Positions 1-14,480 of a stretch of DNA of 64,000 nucleotides are shown here, piece by piece (the first letter of the stretch is position 1; each line of letters starts with the position of its first letter). The notes under the pieces are model-generated. The model did no database searches. It was not told the DNA's origin and worked only from the letters and a program-made list of their open reading frames with translations. Origin of the DNA: a virus; IMG/VR virus record IMGVR_UViG_3300047546_001733, positions 1 to 64,000 of that record; one strand, written 5' to 3'. The position numbers and the translations under genes were made by a program.

Positions 1-134
1 AGGCTTTGAAGTATTGTAGTGCGGTCTACGACTTTGTAACGCAGTAAACGCTTTCCCTCTGCTTCCCCTTGAAAAAGTGGGAGGTAGGGGGTAGGGGGTC
101 CCCCTCCCCGCTCCGTAAGAAAACCCCCACGCCA

Positions 135-371
135 TTACTGGCTGGGGGCTTCTTTGTAGTGTAAAGGGTAGCGATTACGAAACCACTCCATATACGCAAG
201 AGCCATATGAAACATCATGTAGTCGTAGGCTTCATCGCCAATGAACGAAGTTGAATCTACATCCTTATCCGTGTTGAAGTAGATTTCGCTGTTGTGCTCG
301 TGAACCATACGGTGGAGAGTGTTGAAACATTCCCCACCGTAGATTTCTGGCATCTGAATCTTATTCATCAC
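135..371 (-). CDS. hypothetical phage protein
   Basis: ORF overlapping the stop of 368..637; ends just before a repeat copy. Confidence 0.7.
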   Translation of the reverse strand: MMNKIQMPEIYGGECFNTLHRMVHEHNSEIYFNTDKDVDSTSFIGDEAYDYMMFHMALAYMEWFRNRYPLHYKEAPSQ

Positions 372-637
372 GCCAACACCTTTGACAACAACGACACAGG
401 AGTCATGTCCGAGAACAAACCATGGAAGTGAGCAAACTTACCAAACGAACCATACTCACCACGGAAGCGTTCGGCAACCAAGTGCATCAACGTCTGGTCA
501 ATCTTTTTCTCGTACCAGTGACCCGAGTTCTTGAAACGAACCACAATCGTGTTCTGGTCGGGAATCAACGCAACACGGTCAACAGCCGACGAACGGTCAT
601 TCGAAACATTCACAATTACAGTCTTCATAAAAGTCAT
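368..637 (-). CDS. KTSC-domain-like protein
   Basis: SSAVDRV...IVVRFKNSGHWY...GSFGKF resembles the KTSC pattern SS-I..V-F..G..Y...S-G-YF; AAGGAG RBS and own promoter. Confidence 0.55.
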   Translation of the reverse strand: MTFMKTVIVNVSNDRSSAVDRVALIPDQNTIVVRFKNSGHWYEKKIDQTLMHLVAERFRGEYGSFGKFAHFHGLFSDMTPVSLLSKVLA

Positions 638-663
638 TCTCCTTAATTAAGATTACTCTGTAA

Positions 664-692
664 GTATACCACACAATCAAACTCTTGTCAAG
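664..692 (-). promoter_or_regulatory. sigma70-type promoter
   Basis: Minus strand TTGACA-17 bp (ending TGTGG)-TATACT. Confidence 0.85.
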
Positions 693-695
693 CCC

Positions 696-923
696 CTAAT
701 AATCTTCGCCGTCATCTTCAGCAACATACTCAATCTTCATCGTCACAAACTTGTCGTACAACATCACAAGTGTGCGAGCCTGTCTGACCAAGTGTGGCAA
801 AGCCATAGCCTCGTACCCACTCCAGTCCACAGTACGTGTGTCAACTGCGTCCATCAACTTCTCAACACAAATCTCAAGGTCATGGCTAGTGTTCTCAAAC
901 GCGCAATACGATAATGTAGGCAA
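696..923 (-). CDS. hypothetical protein, acidic C-terminus
   Basis: GAGGAGG RBS, TTG start, TGnTATAAT upstream at ~955. Confidence 0.75.
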   Translation of the reverse strand: MPTLSYCAFENTSHDLEICVEKLMDAVDTRTVDWSGYEAMALPHLVRQARTLVMLYDKFVTMKIEYVAEDDGEDY

Positions 924-1036
924 CTCAACACCTCCTCTTCATTACTACTCTTAGATTATAGCACAGAATAACAGAGCGTGCATTAAAATAAGATGAGAGA
1001 TTAGGGGGTAGGGGGTGCCCCTCCCCCGCCCATACG

Positions 1037-1072
1037 AAAACCCCCACCGAGGATGGTGGGGGCTTCTTTTTT
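1037..1072. terminator. bidirectional intrinsic terminator
   Basis: AAAA-CCCCCACC-loop-GGTGGGGG-CTTCTTTTTT. Confidence 0.65.
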
Positions 1073-1074
1073 AT

Positions 1075-1296
1075 TTATCGAATGATTGTTGCTTTAATAT
1101 TATGCTTTAACAGGAAGTCAATGATACCAAAGTAGTTTTCGTTTTCAAGAAGTTCGGTGAACTCGTCGTCGTATTCAGTGGGTATCGTTTCCATGTCGAA
1201 CACCACGATACTGTCATAGATAGGTCCGCAGTTACCATCAGAAGCCACGTAGAAAGAAAACTCGCCGTTAATCTCAATGGTCTGTATGTTACTCAT
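1075..1296 (-). CDS. hypothetical protein
   Basis: GGAGA RBS; 4-nt overlap with upstream gene. Confidence 0.75.
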   Translation of the reverse strand: MSNIQTIEINGEFSFYVASDGNCGPIYDSIVVFDMETIPTEYDDEFTELLENENYFGIIDFLLKHNIKATIIR

Positions 1297-1565
1297 ATTC
1301 TCTCCAAATATAAATTACCGCCGACAACTACCAAGTGTAACTGATACGGCTGTAATAACTCATTAATCTCATCCAGCATATCATCAACCACATAGACTAT
1401 AGCACCGAGCTGGGTTTCGTCGTCTAATTTAAACTCTGGTTTTACAAACTTACTATAGAACGAATATTGTTTCCAGTACCACTGGTAACTGCCAAGATTA
1501 TCTCCCAGCAGTACCAGTGTCGGGTTAGTACGGAACGAACGAACCAAATCAGTTATTGTCTTCAA
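1293..1565 (-). CDS. hypothetical protein
   Basis: Middle gene of a three-gene overlapping cassette. Confidence 0.65.
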   Translation of the reverse strand: MKTITDLVRSFRTNPTLVLLGDNLGSYQWYWKQYSFYSKFVKPEFKLDDETQLGAIVYVVDDMLDEINELLQPYQLHLVVVGGNLYLERI

Positions 1566-1998
1566 CGGATTCCTCTGGCGTGTCTAGCATAGTGAGAAAC
1601 TTGCTAATCTTGTAAACTGATTCATACGAACCATCACGCATCAAGTAGCAAAGACACATCCAAAACGACTCAAATCGCACACTCAACTCACGCAATTCTT
1701 CGATGTAATCATCCTTGTATATTGCCTCCGTAATGAGACTGGTCATTGACCAAAACAGAATATTCTCTTTCTTTGGTGTTTCCGGCTTGTCTTCAGTCTC
1801 GTTTACTTCCTCGATGATAGTTTCGATGTCGTCGCCGAGAGAATCAACATCACGCTCCCACTGACGAATGTTAGAAAGTACATCATTGATGTAGTCTACA
1901 GCAGACTCAAGGTCACTGTAATCAAAACTCTGATACAACTCACGAGCCTTGCCCTTGACAACTTCCAAGTCACCAGCAAACTTCTTAATGTCGCTCAT
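1549..1998 (-). CDS. hypothetical acidic coiled-coil protein
   Basis: GAGGAG RBS before ATG at 1998 (MSDIKK); TTGACA..TGTGGTATACT promoter at ~2031-2059. Confidence 0.75.
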   Translation of the reverse strand: MSDIKKFAGDLEVVKGKARELYQSFDYSDLESAVDYINDVLSNIRQWERDVDSLGDDIETIIEEVNETEDKPETPKKENILFWSMTSLITEAIYKDDYIEELRELSVRFESFWMCLCYLMRDGSYESVYKISKFLTMLDTPEESVEDNN

Positions 1999-2048
1999 AA
2001 CGCTCCTCATATAATCATTACTACTCTGTTAGTATACCACAGGTCGGA

Positions 2049-2300
2049 CTACTTGTCAAGCAACGGTGCTTTGAATACCTTCATCTGTTTCTCATGCAAC
2101 TTCTCGTAATGCTTCTGGTTATCCATATCCATTACCGAGATGTCGTGAGCGTAGACGCTTCCAGCCTCTTCAGCCCAACCGAACACGAAACACAAAGGGG
2201 TAGCCGTGTTGACTTGTCCGATAATCTTCGCATACCAACCACCGTACCAAACCCAGTCGCCCTTTTTGAATCCCAGTGCCTTCGCAGTTTTGTTACTCAC
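2049..2300 (-). CDS. hypothetical protein (SH3/KOW-like FKKGDWV start)
   Basis: AAGGA RBS, GTG start, TGCTATAAT upstream. Confidence 0.7.
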   Translation of the reverse strand: MSNKTAKALGFKKGDWVWYGGWYAKIIGQVNTATPLCFVFGWAEEAGSVYAHDISVMDMDNQKHYEKLHEKQMKVFKAPLLDK

Positions 2301-2433
2301 GTTCGTTTCCTTTCTTCTTGACTACCTTTGTATTATAGCACGGAATTGCAGGTAATACATTAAAGCCAGATGAGAATTTAGGGGGTAGGGGGTGCCCCAG
2401 CCCCGAGGGCTTCGAAAAGCCCCCGGGATATAC

Positions 2434-2820
2434 CTAGGGTTGCACACGCTCAAGACATAACAACAACTGATAACCACGTCGTATGAAGTAATAATTGATA
2501 CCATACGTACCTGTATTTGGTCGCCATTCCATAAGGTACTTATACGCCTCGGCTTCCACAATCGCATACTTCACATGGTCTGCCTGTGACGCAAAAGACA
2601 CATCATTTAAAATCTCAAACATAATGGGCTGTGGTAGCATACGCAACAGAGAAACCCACGCAATAGCATACCAGTCGTGATGCGGGAGGACATGGTCTTC
2701 GTGTAACCCAAACTCTCGAATAACAACACCCGTGTGTCCATTGTCAAATACTTCAACATTGTTACCTGTATACAAATCATGTGCATACGCAAACAACTCA
2801 CAGTTAGTCCAAATACTCAT
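2434..2820 (-). CDS. hypothetical protein
   Basis: AAGGAG RBS, TGGTATACT upstream. Confidence 0.75.
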   Translation of the reverse strand: MSIWTNCELFAYAHDLYTGNNVEVFDNGHTGVVIREFGLHEDHVLPHHDWYAIAWVSLLRMLPQPIMFEILNDVSFASQADHVKYAIVEAEAYKYLMEWRPNTGTYGINYYFIRRGYQLLLCLERVQP

Positions 2821-3013
2821 AATAACTCCTTACTTACTAATCCTTACTTAGTATACCACATTTGAATTGTAAAATCAAGTTTTAAATTTTGAATTTTGAA
2901 TTTTAGTTTATGGAGTTTTTTTTTGATAGTTTTTTTTTCTCATCTACTTTTAATGTTATTCTGGTAGTTTCTGTGGTATACTAAGAATGTAGTCGAAGAG
3001 AGGAGATTTTTAC

Positions 3014-3508
3014 ATGAGCACTTTTGATTTGAAGACGTGGCAAGACCGACAGAAGTTTATCTATCAGGTGGGGCTTAATCATCGCATTGTACTGGGTAAT
3101 GAGTTTGAGCGGAAGTTTCGTGAAGTAGTCGCAGTCGTAACTACCGCAGACTCTGGTGAACCGAATACGTATGACCACATCTGGAGTTACGGTCAGTTTT
3201 CTGATTATCCTATGTGGAATGCTCGGGCTGTGATTCGCTCTGTACTTGAGAGTAATTCGTTGAGATACTTCATTGTGTACCAGACAAGCATAACAGAGCC
3301 GACACAGAACGAAGTAGACTGGTTGCGCCGTATTGCACGAATAGGCTGGGGTTTGGGTCTTCATATGCAGGACGTGGTACGCTTGACTTACGACAATCAC
3401 CTACCAATGTTCAGCCCCAATTATGAACCCAACATGGAATCACAGTTATGGAATGACACACCACTTTGGAAAGCAATCAATACTAAATTAACGGCGGTGG
3501 CAGAATGA
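3014..3508 (+). CDS. hypothetical protein (inverted cassette)
   Basis: GAGGAGA RBS; TGTGGTATACT at 2972-2982 on plus strand. Confidence 0.8.
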   Translation: MSTFDLKTWQDRQKFIYQVGLNHRIVLGNEFERKFREVVAVVTTADSGEPNTYDHIWSYGQFSDYPMWNARAVIRSVLESNSLRYFIVYQTSITEPTQNEVDWLRRIARIGWGLGLHMQDVVRLTYDNHLPMFSPNYEPNMESQLWNDTPLWKAINTKLTAVAE

Positions 3509-3714
3509 AAGATTCATTTGTATTTAACGTGCTTGTGTTCGCAGACAAGGAATGGTATATCTACACACAGTGTGATAGTGCACGGTATGCGGAAAAGTGT
3601 TTGGCTCGATTTATTGAGGAAACTCCCCGCAATCAATATCACTCAACGCTGATTACCTTCCTACCACGAAGTGACCGATTACATTCATGGGACTTCTATC
3701 GCCACTGGGAGTAG
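3505..3714 (+). CDS. hypothetical protein (inverted cassette)
   Basis: ATGA overlap with 3014..3508. Confidence 0.7.
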   Translation: MKDSFVFNVLVFADKEWYIYTQCDSARYAEKCLARFIEETPRNQYHSTLITFLPRSDRLHSWDFYRHWE

Positions 3715-3826
3715 TCCCGCATCTCAAAAAAAAAATTAATACGGAGCACCCCATATACCTAAGTGCGGGGTGTTCTGTATTAATTAGGGGCAGGGGGTCC
3801 CCCTACCCCCAAAAAAAGCCTTGACC

Positions 3827-4114
3827 CTATGGATTATCCATAGAGTCAAAGGTTTTGCTCATCGCTTTTTGCATCAGTTCGGAATACAGGGCAACACGTT
3901 TGTCAAGGTTGGCTTGCCACATATCTTCCGTTTCTTGGGCACGAATACGCACCGCACGCCACAACTCAACGAATTGCTGATATTGATGCAAGTCTTGAAA
4001 CTGTGAATCTGGGTCTTGCAACTTCTGCGCTTGCTCCATGAAGTGAATCATCATAGATTCAAGCATACGTTGTGCGTTCTTAACCAACATCTGAAAGTCT
4101 TGTTCATTATTCAT
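3827..4114 (-). CDS. hypothetical helical protein
   Basis: GGGAGA RBS; overlaps upstream gene. Confidence 0.7.
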   Translation of the reverse strand: MNNEQDFQMLVKNAQRMLESMMIHFMEQAQKLQDPDSQFQDLHQYQQFVELWRAVRIRAQETEDMWQANLDKRVALYSELMQKAMSKTFDSMDNP

Positions 4115-4385
4115 CGTTGAAGCTTCTCCCTAATTGAAAAAGAATGTCAATGTACTGCGTGAACTCGTTAATTTCTTCTCGTGTCTGGTATGGCTCGCTT
4201 GGCTTCAAGTCTGGGCACTCACGCAAGAAGTTTGGACCATCACAGTCTTCCTCAAGGTATACATAATCACTATCGTGAACACTGAACACGGAAGGAATGA
4301 AGTATACCGTGTTGAATACTGACCACGGAACACGTAAGAATCCATGACCGTCTGTACTTAACCACATCGCATTGTACTCTTGCAT
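4107..4385 (-). CDS. conserved-looking phage protein (DGHGFLRV...YLEEDCD)
   Basis: GAGGAG RBS, TGGTATAAT promoter; D.GHG(W/F)L.V and YLEEDCD motifs recur in phage hypotheticals. Confidence 0.75.
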   Translation of the reverse strand: MQEYNAMWLSTDGHGFLRVPWSVFNTVYFIPSVFSVHDSDYVYLEEDCDGPNFLRECPDLKPSEPYQTREEINEFTQYIDILFQLGRSFNDE

Positions 4386-4578
4386 CGCACTCTCCTCTTC
4401 TTGACTACATATGTATTATACCACGGAATCTATTATCTGTACATTAGTAACTAATGAGAATCAGGTGGGGGTAGGGGGACCCCCTACCCCCTAAACCCAA
4501 AAACCGATTATGATTTTTGGATTTTTAATTTTTTCCATTTTTCAATTTTTTGATTTTTGGATTTAGGGGTGGTGTATT

Positions 4579-5301
4579 TTAGTGGTAATTGAAACCGATA
4601 ACCCGAGGAGTTTCGAGACTTGGTAATGATGCAGGTGAACACAGCATACATTCAGCGCATTTAACTCGCCCCTTCGTAATCTGATTTGGACACGTTACAA
4701 GTTTAACAGCACCGAGTTGTTCGCTTGTCGGCTTGTTCTTTACATTAATAACCAATGTTGTCATCCAGCCTAACCAGCGGGCATGATGCACTTCGTCGAC
4801 AGTGTCACAGGAAGCCATAAACCACTTTTTGAGTGGTTGCACTGCATCGTAACGCCACCCATGAGTGTACCCGATACTCTTTACACCGACAGCGTCAAGT
4901 TGCTCACACGCCCACACTTGTGCGTTGATGTATTCAACACTTGGGGCGTCATTGTCAAATACATCACCTGATACGTGCCAACGTATGGTATCAATACGCT
5001 TTGCTTGTGTAACGCCTTTACCTTTCTCAAGAGCACGCAGGTCAAGAAACTTTTTGACAGCAACACGTAACTTTAGACCATCAACAATACCGGCTTTTTC
5101 TTGGTGAATGTTTGTGCGCCCCTTTTTGGTGTAGCACGTTGACACACGCCCAAACTTTGTACGCTTTTCGAGTGCATACTCATTAGGATTAGGATGCAAC
5201 ATACAAGAGCGGGGGCATGATACACCTGTTTCATTGTACGTAACAGCAACGTTCTTACCTGTGGTCAATTTGCGGTCACCGCTTTGCATTACAAACTTCA
5301 T
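4579..5301 (-). CDS. Cys-rich GP88-like / radical-SAM-related protein
   Basis: CPRSC...CY, IRWHVSGD, GYTH, C-terminal CPNQ..CAECMLC; GGAGG RBS before ATG 5301. Confidence 0.55.
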   Translation of the reverse strand: MKFVMQSGDRKLTTGKNVAVTYNETGVSCPRSCMLHPNPNEYALEKRTKFGRVSTCYTKKGRTNIHQEKAGIVDGLKLRVAVKKFLDLRALEKGKGVTQAKRIDTIRWHVSGDVFDNDAPSVEYINAQVWACEQLDAVGVKSIGYTHGWRYDAVQPLKKWFMASCDTVDEVHHARWLGWMTTLVINVKNKPTSEQLGAVKLVTCPNQITKGRVKCAECMLCSPASLPSLETPRVIGFNYH

Positions 5302-5488
5302 AACATCCTCCATCACTTGATTACATCTTATTATAGCACAGATTATCATTAAGTAGTATGAGAATTAGATTAGAGCACGGTAGTCTATAATAGTATATAC
5401 GAAAATTGCATATTTGCAAATACCTAAGTGCTAAGTAATTGAGCAGTAGGGGGTAGGGGGTCCCCCTGCCCCTGATAACCCGCCCACT

Positions 5489-5866
5489 CTATACATCATC
5501 GTATAGAGTAGGTAGATTACGGAGGATTTCAAAGCCGTTCGCCAACTTAGTTAAGGCACGCCCGATTTGGTCGGCTCGAACGTATTGGTCTTTTCCTAAA
5601 TCTTTCATGTCAGTTAACAAACTAGATTCAGCCTGTTGTACAGCACGGAGTAGATTGTTACCGACTCCCTTGAGATTCTCCTCAAAGTATACCCAATAGG
5701 AAGTAGGCTCACCAGCAAACTCGTATTGTGTTGCACAGATGCGAATCTCATCACGCTCAAATACTTCAATCATCTGTAACTCGCCACGCATTACAATCCA
5801 AAGGGAACGGCGTTCCTCGGCTGTCAGTTGTGGTATCAATTCCCGAATCTGTGTACTTGCGTTCAT
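5489..5866 (-). CDS. hypothetical protein
   Basis: Likely start MNASTQ at 5866 (GAGGA RBS), 1 nt after stop of 5868..6029. Confidence 0.7.
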   Translation of the reverse strand: MNASTQIRELIPQLTAEERRSLWIVMRGELQMIEVFERDEIRICATQYEFAGEPTSYWVYFEENLKGVGNNLLRAVQQAESSLLTDMKDLGKDQYVRADQIGRALTKLANGFEILRNLPTLYDDV

Positions 5867-5867
5867 A

Positions 5868-6029
5868 CTAGTCCTCACTTTCATAAGGTCTGCGTAATCC
5901 GTTCTCGTCAAACAACCTATCGTAACACGAACCACACACGTTAATGTCCCGCTGTGCATAGATTACTAAAATAATTTCTTCAGACCACTGTTCAATACCA
6001 CACTCTTCACAAAACTGCGTTTCTTCCAT
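5868..6029 (-). CDS. 53-aa CxxC...CxxC zinc-ribbon microprotein
   Basis: Hand translation MEETQFCEECG...VCGSCYD...; GAGGAG RBS just downstream of the mini-tmRNA. Confidence 0.7.
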   Translation of the reverse strand: MEETQFCEECGIEQWSEEIILVIYAQRDINVCGSCYDRLFDENGLRRPYESED

Positions 6030-6051
6030 CTTGCTCTCCTCTTATTAATAA

Positions 6052-6184
6052 TGGTGGAGATGGGCGGAATTGAACCGCCGTCCAAAACTCGGTGCGTCAC
6101 TTAAGACGACGGACTTTCACGTCTTTCCATGGGCAGTTATCGCTACTCGTCCATGCCGAACCTTGTCGATACCATGTCATCCCC
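6052..6184 (-). ncRNA. ssrA: mini-tmRNA (133 nt; intact tRNA-like domain, greatly reduced mRNA-like domain)
   Basis: 5' GGGGAUG pairs with CAUCUCC-ACCA with G3.U70; stemless D-loop ACAUGGUAUCGAC; 9-bp H2 helix; GGAC-GGCGG-UUCAAUU-CCGCC T-arm; own TGnTATAAT promoter at 6195-6203. Confidence 0.9.
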
Positions 6185-6281
6185 TTACTCTCTTATTATA
6201 ACACAGACCACACCAAAGTAAAATGAGAATCAGATGAGAGGTTTAGGGGGTAGGGGGTCCCCCTGCCCCGCTGTAAACCAT

Positions 6282-6611
6282 TTACAGCAGGGACTTAATT
6301 GCATCTCGTGCAATTTTTAATTGGTTAGGGTCTATTGTTAATTGCCCGCTGAAGTCGTGTATAAAAACCCGCACAGTGTAATTAGCATACAGTTGATTAT
6401 ATATACAGTAAGTAACATCTTTAGCATATGACTTACCGTGGCAAATTTCAGCAACGACACCAGAGATACGCAATATTCTAATATCCTTGCCAACATAACT
6501 AATAATAGCGTGTTCGATTGCTTCTAACTCTGTCGGTCGTGATGCACTCGGAATTATTTCAGAGTAAACACCATTTTTGTTTGTATAAATTGAAGCACTA
6601 AAATATGACAT
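6282..6611 (-). CDS. hypothetical protein
   Basis: Second gene of cassette; stop lies in the TGTAAA palindrome. Confidence 0.7.
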   Translation of the reverse strand: MSYFSASIYTNKNGVYSEIIPSASRPTELEAIEHAIISYVGKDIRILRISGVVAEICHGKSYAKDVTYCIYNQLYANYTVRVFIHDFSGQLTIDPNQLKIARDAIKSLL

Positions 6612-6614
6612 ACT

Positions 6615-6911
6615 CTATTCCTCTTCTGTTACTGTGATAAGATGGTCGGGGTATACTGTGCATTGTAAACAATCGCAACCGCAACAATCAGAGGTATCTA
6701 CCTCGATGCTCTTACCACGGCGATACCCATACATGAAGATAACGCACTCACGAGCCGAGCCGGTGAAATAGCCGTAATCAGAAAAGTAATCGTGCTCGTC
6801 GTTCTTTTTCATGATACGGTAGCGCACTTTTCCATCACCTGGGCTATACGTCTTGACCATCAATGTCGGATGTCCGTTCATCATCATCATCAATTCACGC
6901 TTGGCGTTCAT
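6615..6911 (-). CDS. hypothetical protein with Cys-rich tail
   Basis: GAGGA RBS, TGGTATAAT promoter; TYSPGDGKVRYR motif and CCGCDCLQC. Confidence 0.75.
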   Translation of the reverse strand: MNAKRELMMMMNGHPTLMVKTYSPGDGKVRYRIMKKNDEHDYFSDYGYFTGSARECVIFMYGYRRGKSIEVDTSDCCGCDCLQCTVYPDHLITVTEEE

Positions 6912-7018
6912 CGTGTTCCTCTTTCTCTCGATTACATATGTATTATACCATGGATTTTTGAATTTTAAAATGAGAATTAGATGAGAGGTTTAGGGGGTAG
7001 GGGGTCCCCCTGCCCCGC

Positions 7019-7258
7019 CTACTCCCACTCTAATGTGTTAGTGGCAGGGTTGAAGTACCGAATTGTTTCGCCCCACTCCATACGTGAAATAGGACGTTTC
7101 AACGGGCAAGAAATGCGATACCGACCATCTTGCATCTTACGGACACTAAAGTCACGCAAGCGTTGACCAAAGAATTTCATTGTTTTGCGGTCAAAGAAGT
7201 ACGGTTCATTCTCTGCTACAAGGTACTTAATGCGGTAGATTGTCATGCGTTGTGCCAT
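7019..7258 (-). CDS. conserved phage protein (YFFDRKTMKFFG motif)
   Basis: AAGGAG RBS before ATG 7258; motif typical of phage early hypotheticals. Confidence 0.8.
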   Translation of the reverse strand: MAQRMTIYRIKYLVAENEPYFFDRKTMKFFGQRLRDFSVRKMQDGRYRISCPLKRPISRMEWGETIRYFNPATNTLEWE

Positions 7259-7456
7259 GTTGTTCTCCTTCACTTGATTACAATTTATTATAGCATAGAT
7301 TTTTGAATTTTAAAATGAGAATTAGGTGAGAGATTTAGGGGGTAGGGGGTCCCCCTGCCCCCACTGTAAAACTACAGCAGGGTCACGACTAGTACGACCA
7401 AAAGATAACGACAAGCAATACAGTAAAGATAATAAATCCGCCCATGCTATTCTCCT

Positions 7457-7651
7457 CTAGAATGGTAATTCACCATCAGAATACGGCTCAAAGTCACCAC
7501 TCACATCCTCATCAAACTCTTCTCGTAGCCAATCCATCAATTCACCAGAAGACTGCTCAAACTCATCCGCTTGCTGTTCCATCAGGAAGTCATGCAATTC
7601 CTCGTCAGAGTATGATGCACGGAGCAGATGAAGATTAGCCAAGTTAGTCAT
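7457..7651 (-). CDS. very acidic 64-aa protein (possible nucleic-acid mimic)
   Basis: AAGGAG RBS; D/E-rich, ends ELPF. Confidence 0.75.
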   Translation of the reverse strand: MTNLANLHLLRASYSDEELHDFLMEQQADEFEQSSGELMDWLREEFDEDVSGDFEPYSDGELPF

Positions 7652-7765
7652 AACATTCTCCTTCTCTTGATTACATCTTATTATATCACGGATTCTTTAA
7701 TTTTAAAATGAGAATTAGATAAGAGGCTTAGGGGGTAGGGGGGTCCCCCTGCCCCCAGAAAAAGT

Positions 7766-7960
7766 CTATGCTGTTCGTGGTACAGCACGCTTCTCTGGAA
7801 TTTCAATTTCAATTTCTGGATTGTTTTTCACGGTTTTCAAAATTTGTTTTACGATACGCCGTGCGGAACGCGTCTCGTGTGTAATAATATCCTCGCCGTG
7901 TTTTTTCTGTCGGTTGAGTCGATACCGACATTGAATACAGAAACACGTTACAATTTTCAT
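7766..7960 (-). CDS. basic CxCxxC microprotein
   Basis: AGGAG RBS. Confidence 0.7.
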   Translation of the reverse strand: MKIVTCFCIQCRYRLNRQKKHGEDIITHETRSARRIVKQILKTVKNNPEIEIEIPEKRAVPRTA

Positions 7961-7969
7961 TTTTAACTC

Positions 7970-8137
7970 CTACCGTTTCACCAAGGGGCGAACACTGACA
8001 ATAGTAGCCCCCTGAGTAAGTAACCGTTTGAGGATGATGTTTGCGTTGTTATGGTCAAGTGCACGGTCGGGTGTTGGGTTTGTCGTTACCACATGATTCA
8101 GACCTAACCAAATAAACTTAATACGTGTCTTGTGCAT
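7970..8137 (-). CDS. 55-aa hypothetical protein
   Basis: Hand translation MHKTRIKFIWLG...PLVKR; AAGGAG RBS; promoter at ~8170; weak similarity to 9809..10015. Confidence 0.7.
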   Translation of the reverse strand: MHKTRIKFIWLGLNHVVTTNPTPDRALDHNNANIILKRLLTQGATIVSVRPLVKR

Positions 8138-8292
8138 ATCGTGCGCTCCTTCTCTTGATTACACTTTATTATAACATTGATTTTTCAATTTTAGTATTAA
8201 AATTAGATAAGAAATCTGCATTTTTGCAAATATATAAGTGCTAGTAAATTGAACGAGGGGGCAGGGGGACCCCCTACCCCCTACCGTAGCGA

Positions 8293-8568
8293 TTACACAG
8301 CGCATCCGGTACAGAGTCGTTCTCCAAAACGTGCATATGCTTCAGGTGACAAGTCAGTGAGTTCACCACAACGGACACACTCACCATACAGTACCATTGT
8401 CGCACGCAGTTTCTGGTACTCCTCGCTCGCTTTTTTCTCCGCTTCCGCAGAGATTAATGGAGCGTGTAATCCTACACCACTGCGATAAGCATTTGCATCA
8501 AACCCATGAGGATTGCGAAAAATCCGCCGAGTAATTGACCGATTCATTCGCCATGTACGTTTACCCAT
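8293..8568 (-). CDS. basic protein with C-terminal CxxC...CxxC
   Basis: Likely start MGKR at 8568; CVRC/CTGC. Confidence 0.7.
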   Translation of the reverse strand: MGKRTWRMNRSITRRIFRNPHGFDANAYRSGVGLHAPLISAEAEKKASEEYQKLRATMVLYGECVRCGELTDLSPEAYARFGERLCTGCAV

Positions 8569-8673
8569 AACACATCCTTTCCTACATATGTAGTATACCA
8601 CAGATTACCTCTTTTTTACATTAAAGTAACATGAGAGTTGTAGGGGGTAGGGGGTGACCCACGCATGAAGACA

Positions 8674-8862
8674 CTACTGAGTAAAGTCTTCTGGGCTTGG
8701 CTCGTGCACACTAAGAAAAGAAAAAGCCTCGTCCATATCATCAAAAAATTCTTCTAGTTCTAATCCACATGAAGCGCAACAATCCCACGCACTACCATCA
8801 CCAAATGTAATACCGCAGTGCAAACAAGTAAAATTAACGCCCGGTATTTCTACAGTGGTCAT
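8674..8862 (-). CDS. CxxC...CxxC acidic microprotein
   Basis: GGGAGA RBS; CLHC/CASC. Confidence 0.7.
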   Translation of the reverse strand: MTTVEIPGVNFTCLHCGITFGDGSAWDCCASCGLELEEFFDDMDEAFSFLSVHEPSPEDFTQ

Positions 8863-8872
8863 ACTTCTCTCC

Positions 8873-8956
8873 CTACTTCCACATCAAATAAATAAAAATG
8901 ACAAATAACGGTTTAATCAGCAGTAGCAACACAATCGCAGTTGAAAGTAGTAGCAC
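8873..8956 (-). CDS. 27-aa single-TM peptide (paralog of 13409..13492)
   Basis: MLLLSTAIVLLLLIKPLFVIFIYLMWK; AAGGAG RBS; conserved paralog. Confidence 0.75.
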   Translation of the reverse strand: MLLLSTAIVLLLLIKPLFVIFIYLMWK

Positions 8957-9121
8957 AGTGACTCCTTTACTTGATTACAATTTATTATAACACAGGTTTA
9001 CTGGGGATTATATGAGAAATAGATAAGAGGCAACTCGCAATAACGCAAATAACTAAGTGCGGGGTTTTTGGTCGATAAGGGGGTAGGGGGTCCCCCTACC
9101 CCCTAGTGTAAAGACTTTACA

Positions 9122-9313
9122 CTAGGCTTGCCGGAGGAGCTTGTGAAGTTCGTGTTCACAGCGGTGGATAGCGTCGATAGTCGGACCCGTTTCCCCACAG
9201 CACGGACACAGGAAAGGAAGGAGAAGGTCAAGCTTGCGGATTTCACGCTTTAGGGCGATGATGAGTAGGCGACGCTTCAGTGCCTTTTGTTGCTTGACGG
9301 TCTTCTTGTGCAT
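9122..9313 (-). CDS. basic CPCC microprotein (paralog of 12443..12622)
   Basis: Own TTGACA-17-TACAAT promoter; shared KK..KQ..AL..RL..I.LKR.I...CPCC. Confidence 0.8.
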   Translation of the reverse strand: MHKKTVKQQKALKRRLLIIALKREIRKLDLLLPFLCPCCGETGPTIDAIHRCEHELHKLLRQA

Positions 9314-9476
9314 AGTAAACCCCCTTCATCTAACTTGATAATTTATTGTATCACGAACGGAGCAGTTTGTCAATAGGCAATTTATTGTTTACAGCCCACC
9401 TAAAAGGTGTAAAGTGTTTCGCGGGGGAGGGGGACCCCCTACCCCCTACTGTAAAGTGTTTACAGCAGGGTTGTGC

Positions 9477-9644
9477 CTACAGATTGGGGATATGCTTGAT
9501 GTTGTCAACACAGCCCAACAACACGCCGATGATGAAGCGGAAAACCGCAAAGACACCACGCACAGCCACAAAACACAGTTTTAACGTGAGCATGATAGGG
9601 AACATGAGAACGTCGGCTACGGCACGGGTTGCGTTACTCTGCAT
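9477..9644 (-). CDS. 55-aa hydrophobic protein (paralog of 13067..13237)
   Basis: MQSNATRAVADVLMFP...KHIPNL; AAGGAG RBS. Confidence 0.8.
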   Translation of the reverse strand: MQSNATRAVADVLMFPIMLTLKLCFVAVRGVFAVFRFIIGVLLGCVDNIKHIPNL

Positions 9645-9808
9645 TTGAGCACTCCTTGATTAACTTGATTACATCCTATTTTAGCACGGTTATAAAGGAA
9701 TTGCAATAGACTTTTATGAAAATTAGATGAGAGAAAATATTTAACACGGTGTAAACAGTTTAGGGGGTAGGGGGTGCCCCACTGTAAACACTTTACAGTG
9801 GGAGTCGA

Positions 9809-10015
9809 TTACGGGTTGAAGCGGATGCGCTTGTAGCCCGTGATGGTGAAGCCCTTCGACAACAAATCCCGCAACAGGAATTGCCCACGAGCGTCTGCCT
9901 CTTCCCGAGTCTTGAATGCGGCAGTCGTGATGCTGGTGCGCTCGCCGTTGAAAACAAACGACACTTTCACACCAAACATACCTACACCGTGAACACGATT
10001 CGCATATACCATCAT
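9809..10015 (-). CDS. hypothetical protein
   Basis: AAGGAG RBS; TGGTATAAT promoter. Confidence 0.75.
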   Translation of the reverse strand: MMVYANRVHGVGMFGVKVSFVFNGERTSITTAAFKTREEADARGQFLLRDLLSKGFTITGYKRIRFNP

Positions 10016-10160
10016 AAAAACTCTCCTTAACTTCTCTTACATACGTATTATACCACGGATAAGGGAAAACTTTTATGAGAACTAGATGAGAAATAATGCT
10101 TTACACCGTGTAAACAATTTAGGGGGGAGGGGGGACCCCATACCCCCTAGTGTAAAGTGT

Positions 10161-10313
10161 TTACTCCATCTTGGTAGCACAGTCAGGACAGAACAAGTAG
10201 GTTGCCTCACCTTGATGCTCGGGGTCATCTGGCAACAAATCAACCGCTACTAACTCATCAAGGTCGAAGAGTTTCTCACAGTAATGGCAAGGAGTCAAAG
10301 AATCAGCAGTCAT
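10161..10313 (-). CDS. 50-aa CxxC...CxxC microprotein
   Basis: MTADSLTPCHYC...FCPDCATKME; TTGACA-17-TACAAT promoter. Confidence 0.75.
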   Translation of the reverse strand: MTADSLTPCHYCEKLFDLDELVAVDLLPDDPEHQGEATYLFCPDCATKME

Positions 10314-10453
10314 TGGAAAATCCTTCTATCTAACTTGATAATTCATTGTATCATGAATTGGTACTGTTGTCAAGGGGTTTTTATGAGAATTACCTGATAT
10401 TTATCTGATAAATAATTATTTACAATCCACCTAAAAGGTGTAAAGTGTTTACA

Positions 10454-10648
10454 CTAGCGGAGTTTCATGCGGGAAGCGGACTCCATGCACAGCGCACAAC
10501 CGCACAAAATTTTGCTGACCAGCTTATGACGGCGAGCCTTGCGTTGTAACGCCACAAACTCCTCCCGAGTCATTTGCTCAAAGCCGTGCATGGTCAAAAA
10601 CACCTTAAAGATGGTGTCACGCACAAGACGCATTTTTAATTCTTCCAC
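10454..10648 (-). CDS. basic CxCxxC microprotein
   Basis: AAGGAG RBS, GTG start; TTGACA-17-TAAAAT promoter. Confidence 0.75.
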   Translation of the reverse strand: MEELKMRLVRDTIFKVFLTMHGFEQMTREEFVALQRKARRHKLVSKILCGCALCMESASRMKLR

Positions 10649-10919
10649 AAAAAACTCCTTACCACCAAAAATTCAATTACATCCTATTTTAGCACGTAAT
10701 CGGTGACTTGTCAATAGACTTTTATGAGAATTAGATGAGAAAAAATATTTGACAAGGTGTAAACAATTTAGGGGGTAGGGGGACCCCCTACCCCCTACTG
10801 TAAAGACTTTACAGCGGGGTGAGGATTAGTCACGCCATAGTAAGCAGATTACAAGCACAGCAAGCGGTTTTGAGATGATTACTAAGACCAAAAGCAGTTC
10901 GAGGCTCATTCGGAACTCC

Positions 10920-11150
10920 TTACAGCTCAACGAACTTGAATCCGCCCTCGTCAATCATTACCGCTTGCGAGTGAGTTGTGCCCCCGTCGGTTTCGAACTT
11001 GATGTCGAACACGCTACAGGTGGGGTCAGCGTGAAAAGAACCCCGCAATTCGTATTCAAGGTCTTCACGAAAACCGCCCACGTCGTCAATCTCACCTTGC
11101 AGGATGAACTCGAACTTTCCCTCACGGGTCACGGTTGCCTTCATGTACAT
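10920..11150 (-). CDS. acidic protein (paralog of 11309..11557)
   Basis: MKATVTREGKF...DIKFE vs MRAVVTKGGKF...DVRFE. Confidence 0.8.
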   Translation of the reverse strand: MYMKATVTREGKFEFILQGEIDDVGGFREDLEYELRGSFHADPTCSVFDIKFETDGGTTHSQAVMIDEGGFKFVEL

Positions 11151-11308
11151 AATGCGCCCTTTCTCTCGGCTACACAGTAATTATACCACAGATTTTTCAA
11201 TTTTAAAATGAGAATTACATGAGAAATAATTCTTTACAAGGTGTAAACAATTTAGGGGGTAGGGGGTCCCCCTACCCCCTAGTGTAAAGGGTTTACACTA
11301 GGAGACGG

Positions 11309-11557
11309 TTAGCGATGGAGAAACTCGACGTCGCCCCTACCTGCACCATGTACCACCGCTTTAAACTCGCTGACAAACGTACCAGTGGCGTCGGTGAACT
11401 CGAAGCGGACATCGACCAGACCGACCTCGCCACCTGTGGCAAAGGAAATCTCGTCCGCCAACGTTTGGGAGAACTCGGCGACATCTCCCTTAAACTCCTC
11501 GCAACGAACTTCAACGACAAATTTCCCGCCCTTGGTGACTACCGCACGCATACGCAT
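11309..11557 (-). CDS. acidic protein (paralog of 10920..11150)
   Basis: AAGGAG RBS; paralog similarity. Confidence 0.8.
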   Translation of the reverse strand: MRMRAVVTKGGKFVVEVRCEEFKGDVAEFSQTLADEISFATGGEVGLVDVRFEFTDATGTFVSEFKAVVHGAGRGDVEFLHR

Positions 11558-11570
11558 AATCTGGACTCCT

Positions 11571-11822
11571 TTATTTGATGTTTGCTTTTACGGAAAACTT
11601 CATTGAATCCATAGTTACTGAGATGACATGGTTTACATTTTTAATCACCAAATCAGTGTCGTTCACGTCATAGGCTGGTAACGCCATACCACCCAAGTAA
11701 ATCGGCTCGTCGGTCATACGCACTAAGAACAGCGTCGTATACGTAGTATTTTCTTTTGTTTCTAGCGTTACTCGCAAATCGTGAAAACTTGCCGAAAATG
11801 GAAATTGATACTGTACTCGCAT
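11571..11822 (-). CDS. hypothetical protein
   Basis: GGGAG RBS; TGGTATAAT promoter. Confidence 0.75.
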   Translation of the reverse strand: MRVQYQFPFSASFHDLRVTLETKENTTYTTLFLVRMTDEPIYLGGMALPAYDVNDTDLVIKNVNHVISVTMDSMKFSVKANIK

Positions 11823-11991
11823 AACACTCCCTTTCTGTCGGTTACATCTTATTATACCATGCTTTTTCGATTTTGAATATGAGAATTAGATAAGAGATAA
11901 TTCTTTACACAGTGTAAAGAGTTTTGCGGGGCGGGGGCACCCCCTACCCCCTAGTGTAAAGGGTTTACACCAGAAGATGAAACTCCTTACA

Positions 11992-12303
11992 CTATTCGCA
12001 CTCTGGTGTTGATTCCTCGATTGGCTCGAATTGCTCGATGGCTCTCATCATAGCACGCACCTGCTTGCGAATGATGCGCTTTGCGTGTTTCATAGCCTTT
12101 GAATGGTCGTGAATGTCGAACGGACGAACACGCTCACCAGCAAAGAAAATTGAAGAATCCTCCTCGATGATACCGTCCTTCTGGACGATGTCCACACGAA
12201 CCATGACCTTCTTTTCTTCGGGAATCTCGATGGCGACAACAATCGCCTCTTTCCAGCCACCAGCGAAGACCACAACGTGAGCGACGTGTTGCTCTTTTGG
12301 CAT
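11992..12303 (-). CDS. hypothetical protein
   Basis: AAGGAGG RBS; TGGTATAAT promoter. Confidence 0.8.
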   Translation of the reverse strand: MPKEQHVAHVVVFAGGWKEAIVVAIEIPEEKKVMVRVDIVQKDGIIEEDSSIFFAGERVRPFDIHDHSKAMKHAKRIIRKQVRAMMRAIEQFEPIEESTPECE

Positions 12304-12442
12304 ACCAGCCTCCTTACTAACCTTACACTAGAATTATACCACACTTTAGATTAAAATAGTATGAAAATTAGATGAGAAATAATTGTTTACACAGTGTAAA
12401 GCGTGGGGGTAGGGGGACCCCCTACCCCCTACTGTAAACCAT

Positions 12443-12622
12443 TTACAGTGAGAAGAAAAACTCACGACGCAGTTCCATCAAAAATTGATGCGCCTCGTCT
12501 GCTTCACAGCATGGGCAAGCCATCGAGAGCATAAACTCCGCCCGCTTAATTGCACGCTTTAACTGAATCAAGCGTAAACGCTTCCGCAGTGCGAGCATTT
12601 GCTTTTGTGACTTTTTCCGCAT
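12443..12622 (-). CDS. 59-aa basic CPCC microprotein (paralog of 9122..9313)
   Basis: Hand translation MRKKSQKQMLALRKRLRLIQLKRAIKR...ACPCCE; GGAGG RBS. Confidence 0.8.
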   Translation of the reverse strand: MRKKSQKQMLALRKRLRLIQLKRAIKRAEFMLSMACPCCEADEAHQFLMELRREFFFSL

Positions 12623-12651
12623 TTTAGCCTCCGTTAAATAATGGACACGTT

Positions 12652-12903
12652 TTACACCTGCACAATGTGCGCTTTAGATGTAACCGTATCACGAACAGCC
12701 ACGGAATGAACAGTACCGCCATGAGTAGACGTAACGAACACGTCCAAAGAATCCACCAACGGGAACATCGAGAACAGGAAGGAAGCCTCATCACGGACTA
12801 CTTCCATCAAGAAAACAAACTCGCCGAACGTGCACACATCTTGACCAAACTCGGCAAATGTCTTCTCACCACCAGCAAGGCGAACGGTCACAAAATCAGT
12901 CAT
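12652..12903 (-). CDS. hypothetical protein
   Basis: Likely start MTDF at 12903, downstream of the promoter at ~12936. Confidence 0.7.
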   Translation of the reverse strand: MTDFVTVRLAGGEKTFAEFGQDVCTFGEFVFLMEVVRDEASFLFSMFPLVDSLDVFVTSTHGGTVHSVAVRDTVTSKAHIVQV

Positions 12904-13066
12904 GGCAAGCCCTTTCTCTTGTCTTACAGGTAAATTATACCACAAATGAGCAACGTTGAACATGAGAATTAGATGAGAAACAATGTTTTACACGGTGTAA
13001 AGAATTTAGGGGGTAGGGGGTGCCCCACGCCCCCAGTGTAAAGACTTTACACTAGGGGTTTTGCGG

Positions 13067-13237
13067 TTACATCGACGGAATCACCTTGAGCAATTCCAAA
13101 CAGCTCAACACGACACCGACCAAGAAACGCAAGAGCGCACCGACCAAACGGACACACACGACCAAAACCTTACACACAAGCAAGAACGGAAACATGAGAA
13201 CGGCGGCGACCATGCGAGTTGCGTCAGACTTGTACAT
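13067..13237 (-). CDS. 56-aa hydrophobic protein (paralog of 9477..9644)
   Basis: MYKSDATRMVAAVLMFP...KVIPSM; GAGGAG RBS. Confidence 0.8.
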   Translation of the reverse strand: MYKSDATRMVAAVLMFPFLLVCKVLVVCVRLVGALLRFLVGVVLSCLELLKVIPSM

Positions 13238-13408
13238 GAAGTTATCTCTCCTCTTCTCGGTTACAGTTAATTATACCACGCTTTTTCGATTTTGAATATT
13301 AGAATTAGATGAGAGGTAATTATTTACACAGTGTAAAGAGTTCGGCGGGGCACCCCCTACCCCCTACTGTAAAGTGTTTACAGTAGATGAGCGTGAATTA
13401 CGCCCGCC

Positions 13409-13492
13409 TTACTTCCACATCAAATACACAATAACAGCAATAATGGGCTTGATGAGCAACAGCAGAACAATGCCAAAGGTTAGACCGAGCAT
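13409..13492 (-). CDS. 27-aa single-TM peptide (paralog of 8873..8956)
   Basis: MLGLTFGIVLLLLIKPIIAVIVYLMWK; GAGGT RBS. Confidence 0.75.
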   Translation of the reverse strand: MLGLTFGIVLLLLIKPIIAVIVYLMWK

Positions 13493-13640
13493 ACGCACCT
13501 CTTCTATTCGGTTACAGTTAATTATACCACGGCTTTTGAATTTTGAATATTAGAGAAAGATGATAGGTATCTGTTGAGCAATTCTTTACACGGTGTAAAG
13601 CGTTTAGGGGGTAGGGGGTCCCCCTGCCCCAAGTGTAAAT

Positions 13641-13667
13641 AATAAAACCCGCCGATTACTCGGCGAG
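13641..13667 (-). terminator. intrinsic terminator of RNA operon 1
   Basis: CTCGCCGA-GTAA-TCGGCGGG followed by TTTTATTATTT. Confidence 0.8.
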
Positions 13668-13678
13668 TGTAAATAGTT

Positions 13679-13779
13679 TGGGTCCCTACTCTGGATTCGA
13701 ACCAGCGTTCGCTCCGAGTGAGTATCTAGAATCAATCGGATTTACCGCACCCACGGAATTTATTAAGCGATGTTAGGGC
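13679..13779 (-). ncRNA. tRNA-like RNA copy D
   Basis: T-arm CUGG-UUCGAAU-CCAG, imperfect terminal stem, UCGCU/AGCGA helix, CCGUGGGUGCGG hairpin, UCCGA/UCGGA stem with UUCUAGA loop. Confidence 0.8.
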
Positions 13780-13785
13780 AAGTGT

Positions 13786-13885
13786 TGGTAAGAGGTGGAT
13801 TCGAACCACCATGACACTCTAATGAAGGGTCTAGAATCCATTAGATTTACCGCACCTACGGAATGGATTAAGTGTCGTTCAAACC
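13786..13885 (-). ncRNA. tRNA-like RNA copy C
   Basis: T-arm GGUGG-UUCGAAU-CCACC, GGUUUGA/UCUUACC-A acceptor-like stem, GACACU/AGUGUC helix, UCUAAUG/CAUUAGA stem with UUCUAGA loop. Confidence 0.85.
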
Positions 13886-13934
13886 GTAATTTAGGTTAGT
13901 TTTGGGAAAGACCATCACTCAACCTTATGTACTA

Positions 13935-13963
13935 AGTATACCACTGGCTAGATTTCTTGTCAA
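13935..13963 (-). promoter_or_regulatory. sigma70-type promoter of RNA operon 1
   Basis: TTGACA-17 bp-TATACT with TGG extension. Confidence 0.85.
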
Positions 13964-14222
13964 GGGGCAATTTGAATTTCAAAATGAGAATTAGATGAGA
14001 ATTGTTTTTTTCGTATCTGCATCTTTGCGGGCAGATGTGGTAGGGGGTAGGGGGTGCCCCTACCTGTACTGTATTTATTTTGATGTAATTTTTGTTTTTA
14101 AATTGAAATTTCAATTTTATTTTTTTTTCTTTTATATTTAAAACAAAGTTTGCACTCAGATAAAAACTGAGAATAAAAGTATTGTGGTCTCTCTGAAGTT
14201 AACCCCCCTCAGAGACTCAGGG

Positions 14223-14321
14223 ACCAAGTTAAGAGAGTGACTCTTCTGAGAGGGGTATTTCACCCTCACGTCGGTACGAAGTAGTGAGTCCGTGGACTAC
14301 TTACCGCTCTCTTAACTTGAT
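14223..14321 (-). ncRNA. putative ~99-nt structured RNA
   Basis: TTGACA-17-TACAAT promoter (14327-14355); 15-bp terminal helix AUCAAGUUAAGAGAG/CUCUCUUAACUUGGU enclosing two stem-loops; no RBS or ORF. Confidence 0.6.
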
Positions 14322-14480
14322 AATTCATTGTATCATGAATGAACAACCTTGTCAAGAGAGTTTTATGAGAATTAGATGAGTTTCTCTCATATGTTGGTGG
14401 GGCGGCGTGAGAATGACTCTATAACCGAGTGTAAAGAGTTTTAGGGGCGGGGGGACCCCCTACCCCCACACCAGTGTAAA

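Follow-up and report, generated by a model that had tools for sequence, protein, structure and literature searches.

A phage-encoded 133-nucleotide mini-tmRNA with a conserved interior and a candidate role as a competitor of host trans-translation

A 64,000-nucleotide (nt) window of viral DNA, comprising bases 1-64000 of the 72,156-bp IMG/VR virus record IMGVR_UViG_3300047546_001733 (CheckV completeness 94%), contains on its minus strand, at 6052..6184, a gene for a strongly reduced transfer-messenger RNA (tmRNA). This 133-nt mini-tmRNA has a complete tRNA-like domain of the alanine type, a short interior with conserved helices, and the sequence context at which a ribosome would resume translation; the apparent five-codon tag that follows varies among homologues and encodes no degron. 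Trans-translation is the main ribosome-rescue route of bacteria, and some phages depend on it. The explanation that we favor, with roughly an even chance of being right, is that the mini-tmRNA serves as a degron-less, SmpB-dependent competitor of host trans-translation, acting as a decoy or as a tag-less acceptor. Coordinates below are those of the window; RNA position n is window position 6185-n, so that RNA 1 is window 6184. Several of the cited papers (PMC4131195, PMC11915505, PMC2481249, PMC9004378 and PMC11662646) are used in excerpt, and what is attributed to them is limited to those excerpts.

Identification of the RNA gene

The Rfam model for tmRNA, RF00023, matches 6184->6052 at 71.9 bits (E 5.1e-26), well over its gathering threshold of 47 bits, and a search of the whole record gives the same result. 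A first-pass annotation, made from the sequence alone, had read this stretch as a genuine reduced tmRNA; the sequence is as it described, and the covariance search that it proposed bears the reading out. The alignment spans model positions 1-374, with both model ends aligned to the RNA at high posterior probability. All of the tRNA-like domain that the annotation had listed is there: the GGGGAUG/CAUCUCC acceptor strands with G3.U70, A73 followed by CCA, the D-loop analogue, GGAC and the T arm. The pseudoknots PK1-PK4 are not, since 300 internal model positions are swapped for 60 nt; PK1 had already been described as not evident, and at most a 3-bp pairing between a linker and a loop can be drawn in this region. 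A covariance model of our own, described below, scores the same 133 nt at 164 bits.

The second program suggested by the annotation, ARAGORN, was less obliging: it called no tmRNA at 6052-6184 and reported no tag. Neither ARAGORN nor the Rfam tRNA model called a tRNA at this place, and the anticodon arm and full cloverleaf of a tRNA-Ala are not found. The sole tRNA in the window is a tRNA-Leu (anticodon tag) at 63641-63724 (ARAGORN).

The stretch 5400-7000 recurs in public sequencing data, in 20 runs that belong to 15 studies and that, with few exceptions, are labelled freshwater metagenomes. Contigs from three of these runs, each from a different study (X5, X6 and X8), cover 5850-6271, 5938-6191 and 6054-6246 with zero letter differences. 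Because these contigs bridge the RNA unchanged, the 133-nt form did not arise by collapse of a full-length tmRNA during assembly, the outcome that the annotation had named as fatal to its reading. A 523-nt contig of the RNA run X22 was considered as a possible transcript of the mini-tmRNA and rejected: only 6052-6085 matches, with 1 difference, and the contig represents another tmRNA-type RNA.

Homologues and conserved structure

An identical copy of the mini-tmRNA is present in a 53.6-kb viral contig, where the protein encoded upstream (109 amino acids) is only 63% identical and an open reading frame (ORF) of 53 amino acids next to the RNA is missing. Pattern scans yielded diverged versions, four from metagenomes (L064, L078, L096 and L143) and one from a 72.8-kb viral contig (L312). 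The six homologous sequences, all exactly 133 nt long, represent about four independent lineages, and the structure given here was derived from these same sequences. Our covariance model was built on five of them, L312 having been found later, and was run on the window and 99 loci.

All parts of the structure lie on the minus strand. The 5' acceptor strand (RNA 1-7, with G3) and the D-loop analogue (RNA 8-20) occupy 6165..6184, followed by the 5' strand of helix H2 (RNA 21-29, 6156..6164), which pairs with RNA 93-101 (6084-6092). After a linker (RNA 30-32) comes an arm at 6111..6152, composed of stem Y (RNA 33-36/71-74), an internal loop, stem Z (RNA 42-44/64-66) and a 19-nt loop (RNA 45-63). 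The internal loop, GAGUA (RNA 37-41) opposite GAAA (RNA 67-70), may be a loop-E type module, and the linker may form a 3-bp pairing with the large loop (30-32/55-57). Hairpin V (RNA 77-80/87-90, loop UUAAGU) lies at 6095..6108. The remainder, 6052..6083, holds GGAC and the T arm (RNA 106-122, stem 106-110/118-122), the 3' acceptor strand, the discriminator A and the encoded CCA; the acceptor stem is RNA 1-7/123-129, and the equivalent of U70 is RNA 127.

In all six homologues the acceptor stem has its 7 pairs, with two of them compensated in L312, and G3.U70 is retained; acceptor stem and T arm are 100% paired. Helix H2, with 9 bp, is far shorter than in the RF00023 model and likewise 100% paired, three of its pairs having changed on both sides. 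Stem Y is 95.8% paired, with both-side changes in three of four pairs; stem Z is invariant; and hairpin V is 100% paired, with both-side changes in two of four pairs. The linker-loop pairing is weaker (83% paired, one compensatory pair). Over the whole structure standard pairs make up 98.1% of cells, and both-side changes are seen in 11 pairs (acceptor 2, H2 3, Y 3, V 2, linker-loop 1). No shuffle out of 500 reaches the observed values, and sliding the partners by 1-3 columns lowers pairing to 34-49%. The compensatory changes support a predicted interior in the form of a three-way junction of H2, the Y-Z arm and hairpin V.

The minimum free energy of the single sequence is no better than that of shuffles (z -0.66), and the D-loop region is mispaired in that fold; the mini-tmRNA is supported by the covariance model and the comparative data and not by folding energy. 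With MAFFT and RNAalifold, 23 type-A sequences yielded a consensus for the tRNA-like domain and the base of H2 but none for the interior. Two other pairings were tried and rejected. A stem 60-65/77-82 leaves pair 64:78 unpaired in 3/5 homologues. The other, a CAUGG/CCAUG stem (30-34/53-57), had been put forward in the annotation as one that could sequester the resume codon. The complementarity is real, but this stem is 86.7% paired and inferior to stem Y, and the comparative data favor 33-36/71-74 as the partner of G33 and G34. In L312, G34 is replaced by A and its stem Y partner at 73 by U, with C53 unchanged; because L312 thereby compensates 34:73 and breaks 34:53, stem Y with the short linker-loop pairing is preferred.

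These data bear on one further explanation, in which the gene has no function and is either the decaying remains of a tmRNA captured from a host or part of an attachment site. Fragments of ssrA, left by imprecise excision, are indeed found in phages (PMC9004378, as excerpted). Against such an origin stand the exact length of 133 nt in six diverged homologues, compensatory changes in four helices, the presence of both halves of the tRNA-like domain, a promoter-like site of its own, and an RNA that is identical in a contig whose neighboring protein has diverged to 63% identity. The 72-kb record also encodes no tyrosine integrase, for which reason an attachment-site origin was discarded. We consider a remnant of either kind very improbable.

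The proposed tag frame

The frame pointed out in the first-pass annotation, GCC CAU GGA AAG ACG UGA, is present at 6134->6117 (6117..6134 on the minus strand, RNA 51-68) with UAACU (RNA 46-50) before it. It sits in the Y-Z arm, and its UGA overlaps invariant stem Z and the internal loop. RNA 45-53 (A-U-A-A-C-U-G-C-C) is invariant save position 46, with an A at -4 from the GCC. In Escherichia coli, the frame depends on a five-base element, UAGUC, ahead of the resume codon, and A86, at -4, is the essential and most conserved frame-setting base, with SmpB or S1 proposed as its ligand (PMC2481249, excerpt).

Translation of the frame in the six sequences gives AHGKT in two, AYKQT in two, AFTET in one and, in L096, AYKQT with read-through, the UGA kept in the other five being UUA there. 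None of these peptides ends in a hydrophobic degron. Codons 2-4 contain five variable positions (54, 55, 57, 58 and 60), all of them first or second codon bases, and the wobble positions 56, 59 and 62 are invariant; every codon variant alters the amino acid. Over this stretch L312 is identical to L078. Covariation ties positions 54 and 57 to 33 and 30. To judge from these comparisons, the variation within GCC..UGA is the pattern of an RNA structure and not that of a peptide under selection. Because RNA 45-53 is nearly invariant and the codons behind it vary, the element that positions resumption has been kept and the 'message' has not. Of an mRNA-like domain, then, the resume context is present, and a conserved tag frame and a hydrophobic degron were not found.

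The same frame was considered in a wider set. Scans with patterns for the tRNA-like domain gave, among the matches listed, 128 unique sequences of 81-146 nt from 174 loci, all of which have G3.U70 and an acceptor stem that is paired throughout. In 97 of these 128 listed sequences an A-rich run leads into GCN and C/U, usually in a large hairpin loop. Reading from the GCN, an in-frame stop precedes the 3' end in 39/97 (shuffled tails 53.6; the other two frames 39 and 53). Because in-frame stops are not enriched, a templated tag with a stop codon is not a trait of the family.

Could the mini-tmRNA nevertheless be a working tmRNA with a short tag, on which the ribosome resumes at GCC, adds AHGKT and stops at UGA, so that rescue occurs without degradation? 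The nearly invariant UAACU|GCC context with its A at -4 and the in-frame UGA at the same place in 5/6 homologues speak for this, as do two reports, in excerpt: tmRNAs with 2-residue tags exist (PMC11915505), and the pseudoknots of the E. coli molecule can be replaced with activity retained (PMC2481249). Other observations speak against it. L096 has lost the stop; variation is never synonymous, 5/5 variable positions being first or second codon bases; covarying or invariant stems contain or adjoin codons 1-2 and the stop codon; ARAGORN finds no tag; and stops are unenriched in every frame of the wider family. To thread the mRNA channel, moreover, a closed 63-nt interior would need to open completely. 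We regard a short-tag tmRNA as unlikely, though a real contender. The annotation's claims thus divide: the frame, the lack of a degron and the resume-type context all stand, but a five-codon tag as a conserved function is not supported, in view of the loss of the stop in L096, the absence of wobble variation and the wider-set counts. The homologue comparison that it had proposed for AUAACU-GCC accordingly came out in two halves, with a near-invariant context, and codons 2-4 that vary and a stop lost once.

Comparison with known tmRNA systems

Reduced tmRNAs have precedents in print, namely the tmRNA of Mycobacterium phage DS6A (PMC4131195) and forms lacking a coding sequence (the 2025 tmRNA database paper, PMC11915505), both sources in excerpt. 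The DS6A RNA consists of the tRNA-like domain only, and a molecule of this kind is stated to be a strong inhibitor of tmRNA, possibly through titration of SmpB (Hudson, Lau and Williams 2014, citing Mao et al. 2009; PMC4131195, excerpt); the reduced tmRNA of DS6A is noted again in the excerpt of PMC11915505. We located this RNA at JN698994.1 28478-28560, where it is unannotated in the record; it is 83 nt long and scores 43.2 bits with RF00023, below the cut-off. It resembles the mini-tmRNA in being phage-encoded, in its standard, non-permuted order and in its full alanine-type tRNA-like domain and short H2, and neither RNA has pseudoknots or a degron-encoding frame. The DS6A RNA has ~20 nt between the H2 strands, whereas the mini-tmRNA has 63 nt (a three-way junction with a 19-nt loop) and, in addition, the resume-type UAACU|GCC context with a possible 5-codon frame. 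In size, therefore, the mini-tmRNA, at 133 nt with a conserved 63-nt interior, falls outside the DS6A type, which measures ~80 nt and joins its H2 strands by a short hairpin. It agrees with that type in belonging to a phage without its own smpB (no PF01668 match in the record).

With canonical one-piece tmRNA (RF00023), the mini-tmRNA shares the tRNA-like domain, G3.U70, H2, the encoded CCA, an A-rich upstream element and the A at -4 before a GCN codon. It differs in length (133 nt versus ~350) and in having no PK1-PK4, H5, conserved tag or hydrophobic C-terminus.

The sole blastn match among 50,697 phage records is a 38-nt stretch of Stenotrophomonas phage BUCTxx99, and it falls in a permuted tmRNA of betaproteobacterial type: T arm and 3' acceptor strand are 94.7% identical over the 38 nt. 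The BUCTxx99 tmRNA lies at 1475-1677 of the fetched locus L175 (OR529408.1 ~98615-98817), scores 100.1 bits with RF04321 and 81.3 bits with RF01850, and is unannotated. Its tag frame, in our reading, is a normal one ending in ..ALAA, unlike the frame considered here. Two-piece permuted tmRNAs also differ from the mini-tmRNA in general layout, the latter being in one piece and in standard order (RF00023 matches end to end), without the long coding piece. In freshwater runs, many contigs match 6052-6088 only and then continue into sequence whose reverse complement resembles the start of the acceptor piece of the two-piece family. The similarity of the tRNA-like domain hints weakly that the host may be a freshwater betaproteobacterium with a two-piece tmRNA.

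Other tmRNAs without a coding sequence or with a very short tag include ~65-bp plastid forms, a form named '9FT-COMBO-53-11' and forms with 2-residue Ala-Ala tags (PMC11915505, excerpt); as excerpted, they resemble the mini-tmRNA in being reduced or without a tag frame, and the '9FT-COMBO-53-11' form is treated as the tmRNA of its species. In the WWE3 genome RBG_19FT_COMBO_53_11, we find a 133-nt mini form as the only RF00023 match; it belongs to a different sequence subfamily from ours.

A proposed competitor of host trans-translation

The phage record encodes no SmpB (PF01668), RF-1/ArfB or Pth domain, and therefore host factors would be required for any role in ribosome rescue. In the mechanism that we propose, a sigma-70-like promoter belonging to the mini-tmRNA would drive a small unit of early type that opens with this RNA, and RNase P and 3' processing would yield a 133-nt RNA ending in CCA. 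Host alanyl-tRNA synthetase would charge it by way of G3.U70, and host SmpB and EF-Tu would bind it. It could then enter ribosomes and compete with host tmRNA, probably of the two-piece betaproteobacterial type, for SmpB and stalled ribosomes. As the presumed benefit to the phage, rescue would be diverted from degradative tagging, or trans-translation would be damped. The first-pass annotation had offered an SmpB or trans-translation decoy as its alternative to tagging, and such a decoy would be in keeping with what the excerpt of PMC4131195 reports for DS6A-like RNAs; for the competition step, that report is indirect support.

Several points weigh against a competitor of this kind. A pure decoy has no obvious need of a conserved 63-nt interior, given that the DS6A type manages with ~20 nt. 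The open frame with its stop in 5/6 homologues, behind an intact resume context, would be compatible with a short tag. Alanylation and SmpB binding are predicted from features of the sequence. There was no RNA run among the listed holders of 5400-7000, a result that is uninformative either way but that we count on this side. Finally, chromosomal mini forms beside full-length tmRNA and smpB, described in the next section, are harder to explain as pure inhibitors.

If these RNAs do compete for SmpB or stalled ribosomes, phages would possess a simple RNA tool for switching off degradative tagging. They would also be natural minimal constructs for dissecting the binding partner of the upstream element. 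The longer structured 133-nt form keeps the frame-setting element and drops the tag.

Distribution in viruses and bacteria

Viral contigs often carry reduced tmRNAs. A scan of IMG/VR with one strict pattern, in which the 3' acceptor strand was included, matched at least 120 stretches with a spacing of 12-42 nt between the two halves, 15 with 43-73 nt, 7 with 74-104 nt (the class of the mini-tmRNA) and 0 with 105-135 nt. Forms of DS6A size are thus far more frequent than those of our class. Among the loci fetched, the viral forms that are little more than a tRNA-like domain (L193-L272) comprise 71 unique sequences of 62-89 nt, peaking at 78-83 nt. As in DS6A, the interior of 28 of the 42 unique viral sequences of 78-89 nt contains an A-rich run that leads into GCC or ACC.

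Mini forms also occur in bacterial chromosomes. Ten metagenome-assembled genomes bearing one were searched for full-length tmRNA, which seven also have (104.6-203.4 bits); three have the mini form only. In one genome the mini form and the full-length tmRNA are on the same 2.7-Mb contig, and in another the mini form shares a 1.7-Mb contig with smpB. The neighbors of the cellular mini forms are housekeeping genes (among them uvrA, prephenate dehydratase and an AIR-synthase-type gene). Genomes with both RNAs belong to Chloroflexota, Planctomycetota, Myxococcota and Patescibacteria (G001, G003, G004, G006, G008-G010, G025 and G049).

For Patescibacteria, an even sample of 101 genomes was searched with a match cut-off of E 1e-13 or better. 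An RNA match was obtained in 95, about 91 of them full-length (314-488 nt); a mini form of 137-159 nt was present in only three, all of which have the full-length tmRNA as well. Because it occurs in so few genomes, each with a full-length tmRNA, the mini form is a sporadic second gene and not the lineage's replacement for tmRNA.

At E < 0.01, our covariance model gives 100 matches, with our subfamily at 162-164 bits and the rest at 26-67 bits. In 92 distinct rows of the resulting alignment, which is biased towards the model, the equivalents of stems Y, Z and V have letters in about half, 40% and 30%, respectively; where present, they are 89-95% paired, with many pair types, again in an alignment biased towards the model. 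The arrangement GUA - 3-bp stem - 14-24-nt loop - 3-bp stem - GAA, as in our RNA, recurs in 23/128 sequences of the wider set (among the matches listed).

It is possible, and we suggest it tentatively, that these RNAs form an unrecognised accessory class of 115-145-nt mini-tmRNAs, distinct from the DS6A type, each combining a tRNA-like domain and a short H2 with a module whose large, A-rich loop bears GCN. Such a class would be found in phages and, sporadically, in chromosomes from several phyla, beside existing full-length tmRNA and smpB. It might modulate trans-translation through a second element contacting SmpB or the ribosome, and not through a coding frame, either as an 'anti-tmRNA' or as a tag-free rescue route. 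In a literature search that left most subscription journals outside, we found in print neither the 133-nt architecture with its conserved A-rich/GCN module, nor the abundance of reduced tmRNAs in viral contigs, nor the sporadic coexistence of mini and full-length tmRNA in chromosomes. There is an annotation gap as well: ARAGORN misses the mini-tmRNA, and the RNAs of DS6A and BUCTxx99 are both without annotation in their records.

Genomic context

A sigma-70-like promoter, TTTACT-16 nt-(TG)TATAAT (6195..6222, minus strand), precedes the mini-tmRNA. It matches the consensus at 10/12 positions and has a TG extension, and 10 nt separate the end of its predicted -10 element from the RNA's initial G. 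Overlapping the -35 region is a 25-nt box (6220..6244), one of four minus-strand copies (the others at 6967-6991, 7312-7336 and 7705-7729) where 0 are expected. Before the box lies a GC-rich perfect palindrome, GGGGCAGGGGGACCCCCTACCCCC (6246..6269, minus strand), which parts the transcription unit of the RNA from the unit upstream.

The palindrome recurs. Its general form, GGGG[C/T]AGGGGG[A/T]CCCCCTACCCCC, has 28 matches at up to 3 mismatches (~20 sites, most counted on both strands; 0 expected), all within window 87-14467, where they lie between small genes and are confined to one arm of the genome; further examples are at 5449-5472, 6993-7016 and 7338-7361. The copies at 6246-6269 and 5449-5472 bracket the mini-tmRNA unit. 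The recurring palindrome is probably a terminator, an insulator or a protein-binding hairpin. The cassette of palindrome, 25-nt box and promoter forms four consecutive minus-strand units, one before the RNA and three before single small ORFs, and from their sequences these look like a family of co-regulated, probably early, promoters. The cassette is also found upstream of the RNA in L064, L078 and L096, with TATAAT at the same distance. Because it is common to all three, we take these contigs to be phage relatives.

Downstream, two ORFs on the minus strand (5489..6029) belong to the same apparent unit, with no terminator-like site between them and the mini-tmRNA. A ribosome-binding site and ATG come 22 nt past the CCA and open an ORF of 53 amino acids with a CxxC...CxxC pattern (6029->5868); an ORF of 125 amino acids follows (5866->5489). 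Neither matches a PHROG family. The 53-amino-acid ORF is present here and in L064 and absent from the otherwise near-identical contig L003. The neighboring genes differ among our phage, L003, L078 and L312, and no partner protein is conserved beside the RNA. Elsewhere, the phage encodes a ribonucleotide reductase (phrog_367, E 4e-176) and proteins with weak portal-like and terminase-like matches, for which tblastn gave no match among the 50,697 phage records.

The homologue in L143 has a different setting. In L143 6113-10394, it lies between genes for a Cas6e-type protein (PF08798), DHH/DHHA1 and Cas_APE2256 (CARF-type, PF09651), with RCC1 repeats and a GFO/IDH/MocA oxidoreductase also nearby, and the source looks cellular or like another element. 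This setting among genes of the clustered regularly interspaced short palindromic repeat (CRISPR) type could be chance, a defence island beside a tmRNA-like gene or a functional link.

The context is relevant to a further explanation, in which the tRNA-like RNA acts outside trans-translation, for instance as an RNase P/Z processing signal at the 5' end of an early transcript, as a dedicated alanine donor or as a decoy for host nucleases or defence proteins with t(m)RNA as their target. Its place at the head of a unit that runs into the next ORFs without a terminator would suit this, as would the CRISPR-associated neighbors in L143 and the use of t(m)RNA fragments by a phage anti-CRISPR (PMC11662646, excerpt). 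However, a processing signal needs no G3.U70, no SmpB-type features in the D-loop and GGAC, and no invariant resume-type loop; the features specific to tmRNA are conserved across the six homologues, and no partner protein is. We judge a role outside trans-translation to be improbable, and retain competition with host tmRNA as the preferred reading.

Other mini-tmRNA subfamilies

Three further observations concern RNAs other than that of the window. A Patescibacteria-type subfamily of mini forms (L037, L047, L053, L066, L075, L087, L107, L162 and L164) has a 19-20-nt loop containing AAAAGCAACCUAGCAAACU and variants of it, and visual reading of eight sequences shows UAG or UGA as the third triplet in seven, which may point to a 2-residue frame. 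The 11-mer GUGAAAGUCCG (window 6114-6124) is also present in an otherwise dissimilar 117-nt subfamily of viral mini-tmRNAs (L028 and L059). Lastly, a 135-nt RNA at L084 6088-6222, on a 100-kb metagenome contig, belongs to a family other than the mini forms; we take it to resemble the ends of a gammaproteobacterial tmRNA, such as E. coli ssrA, with a long internal stretch seemingly missing.

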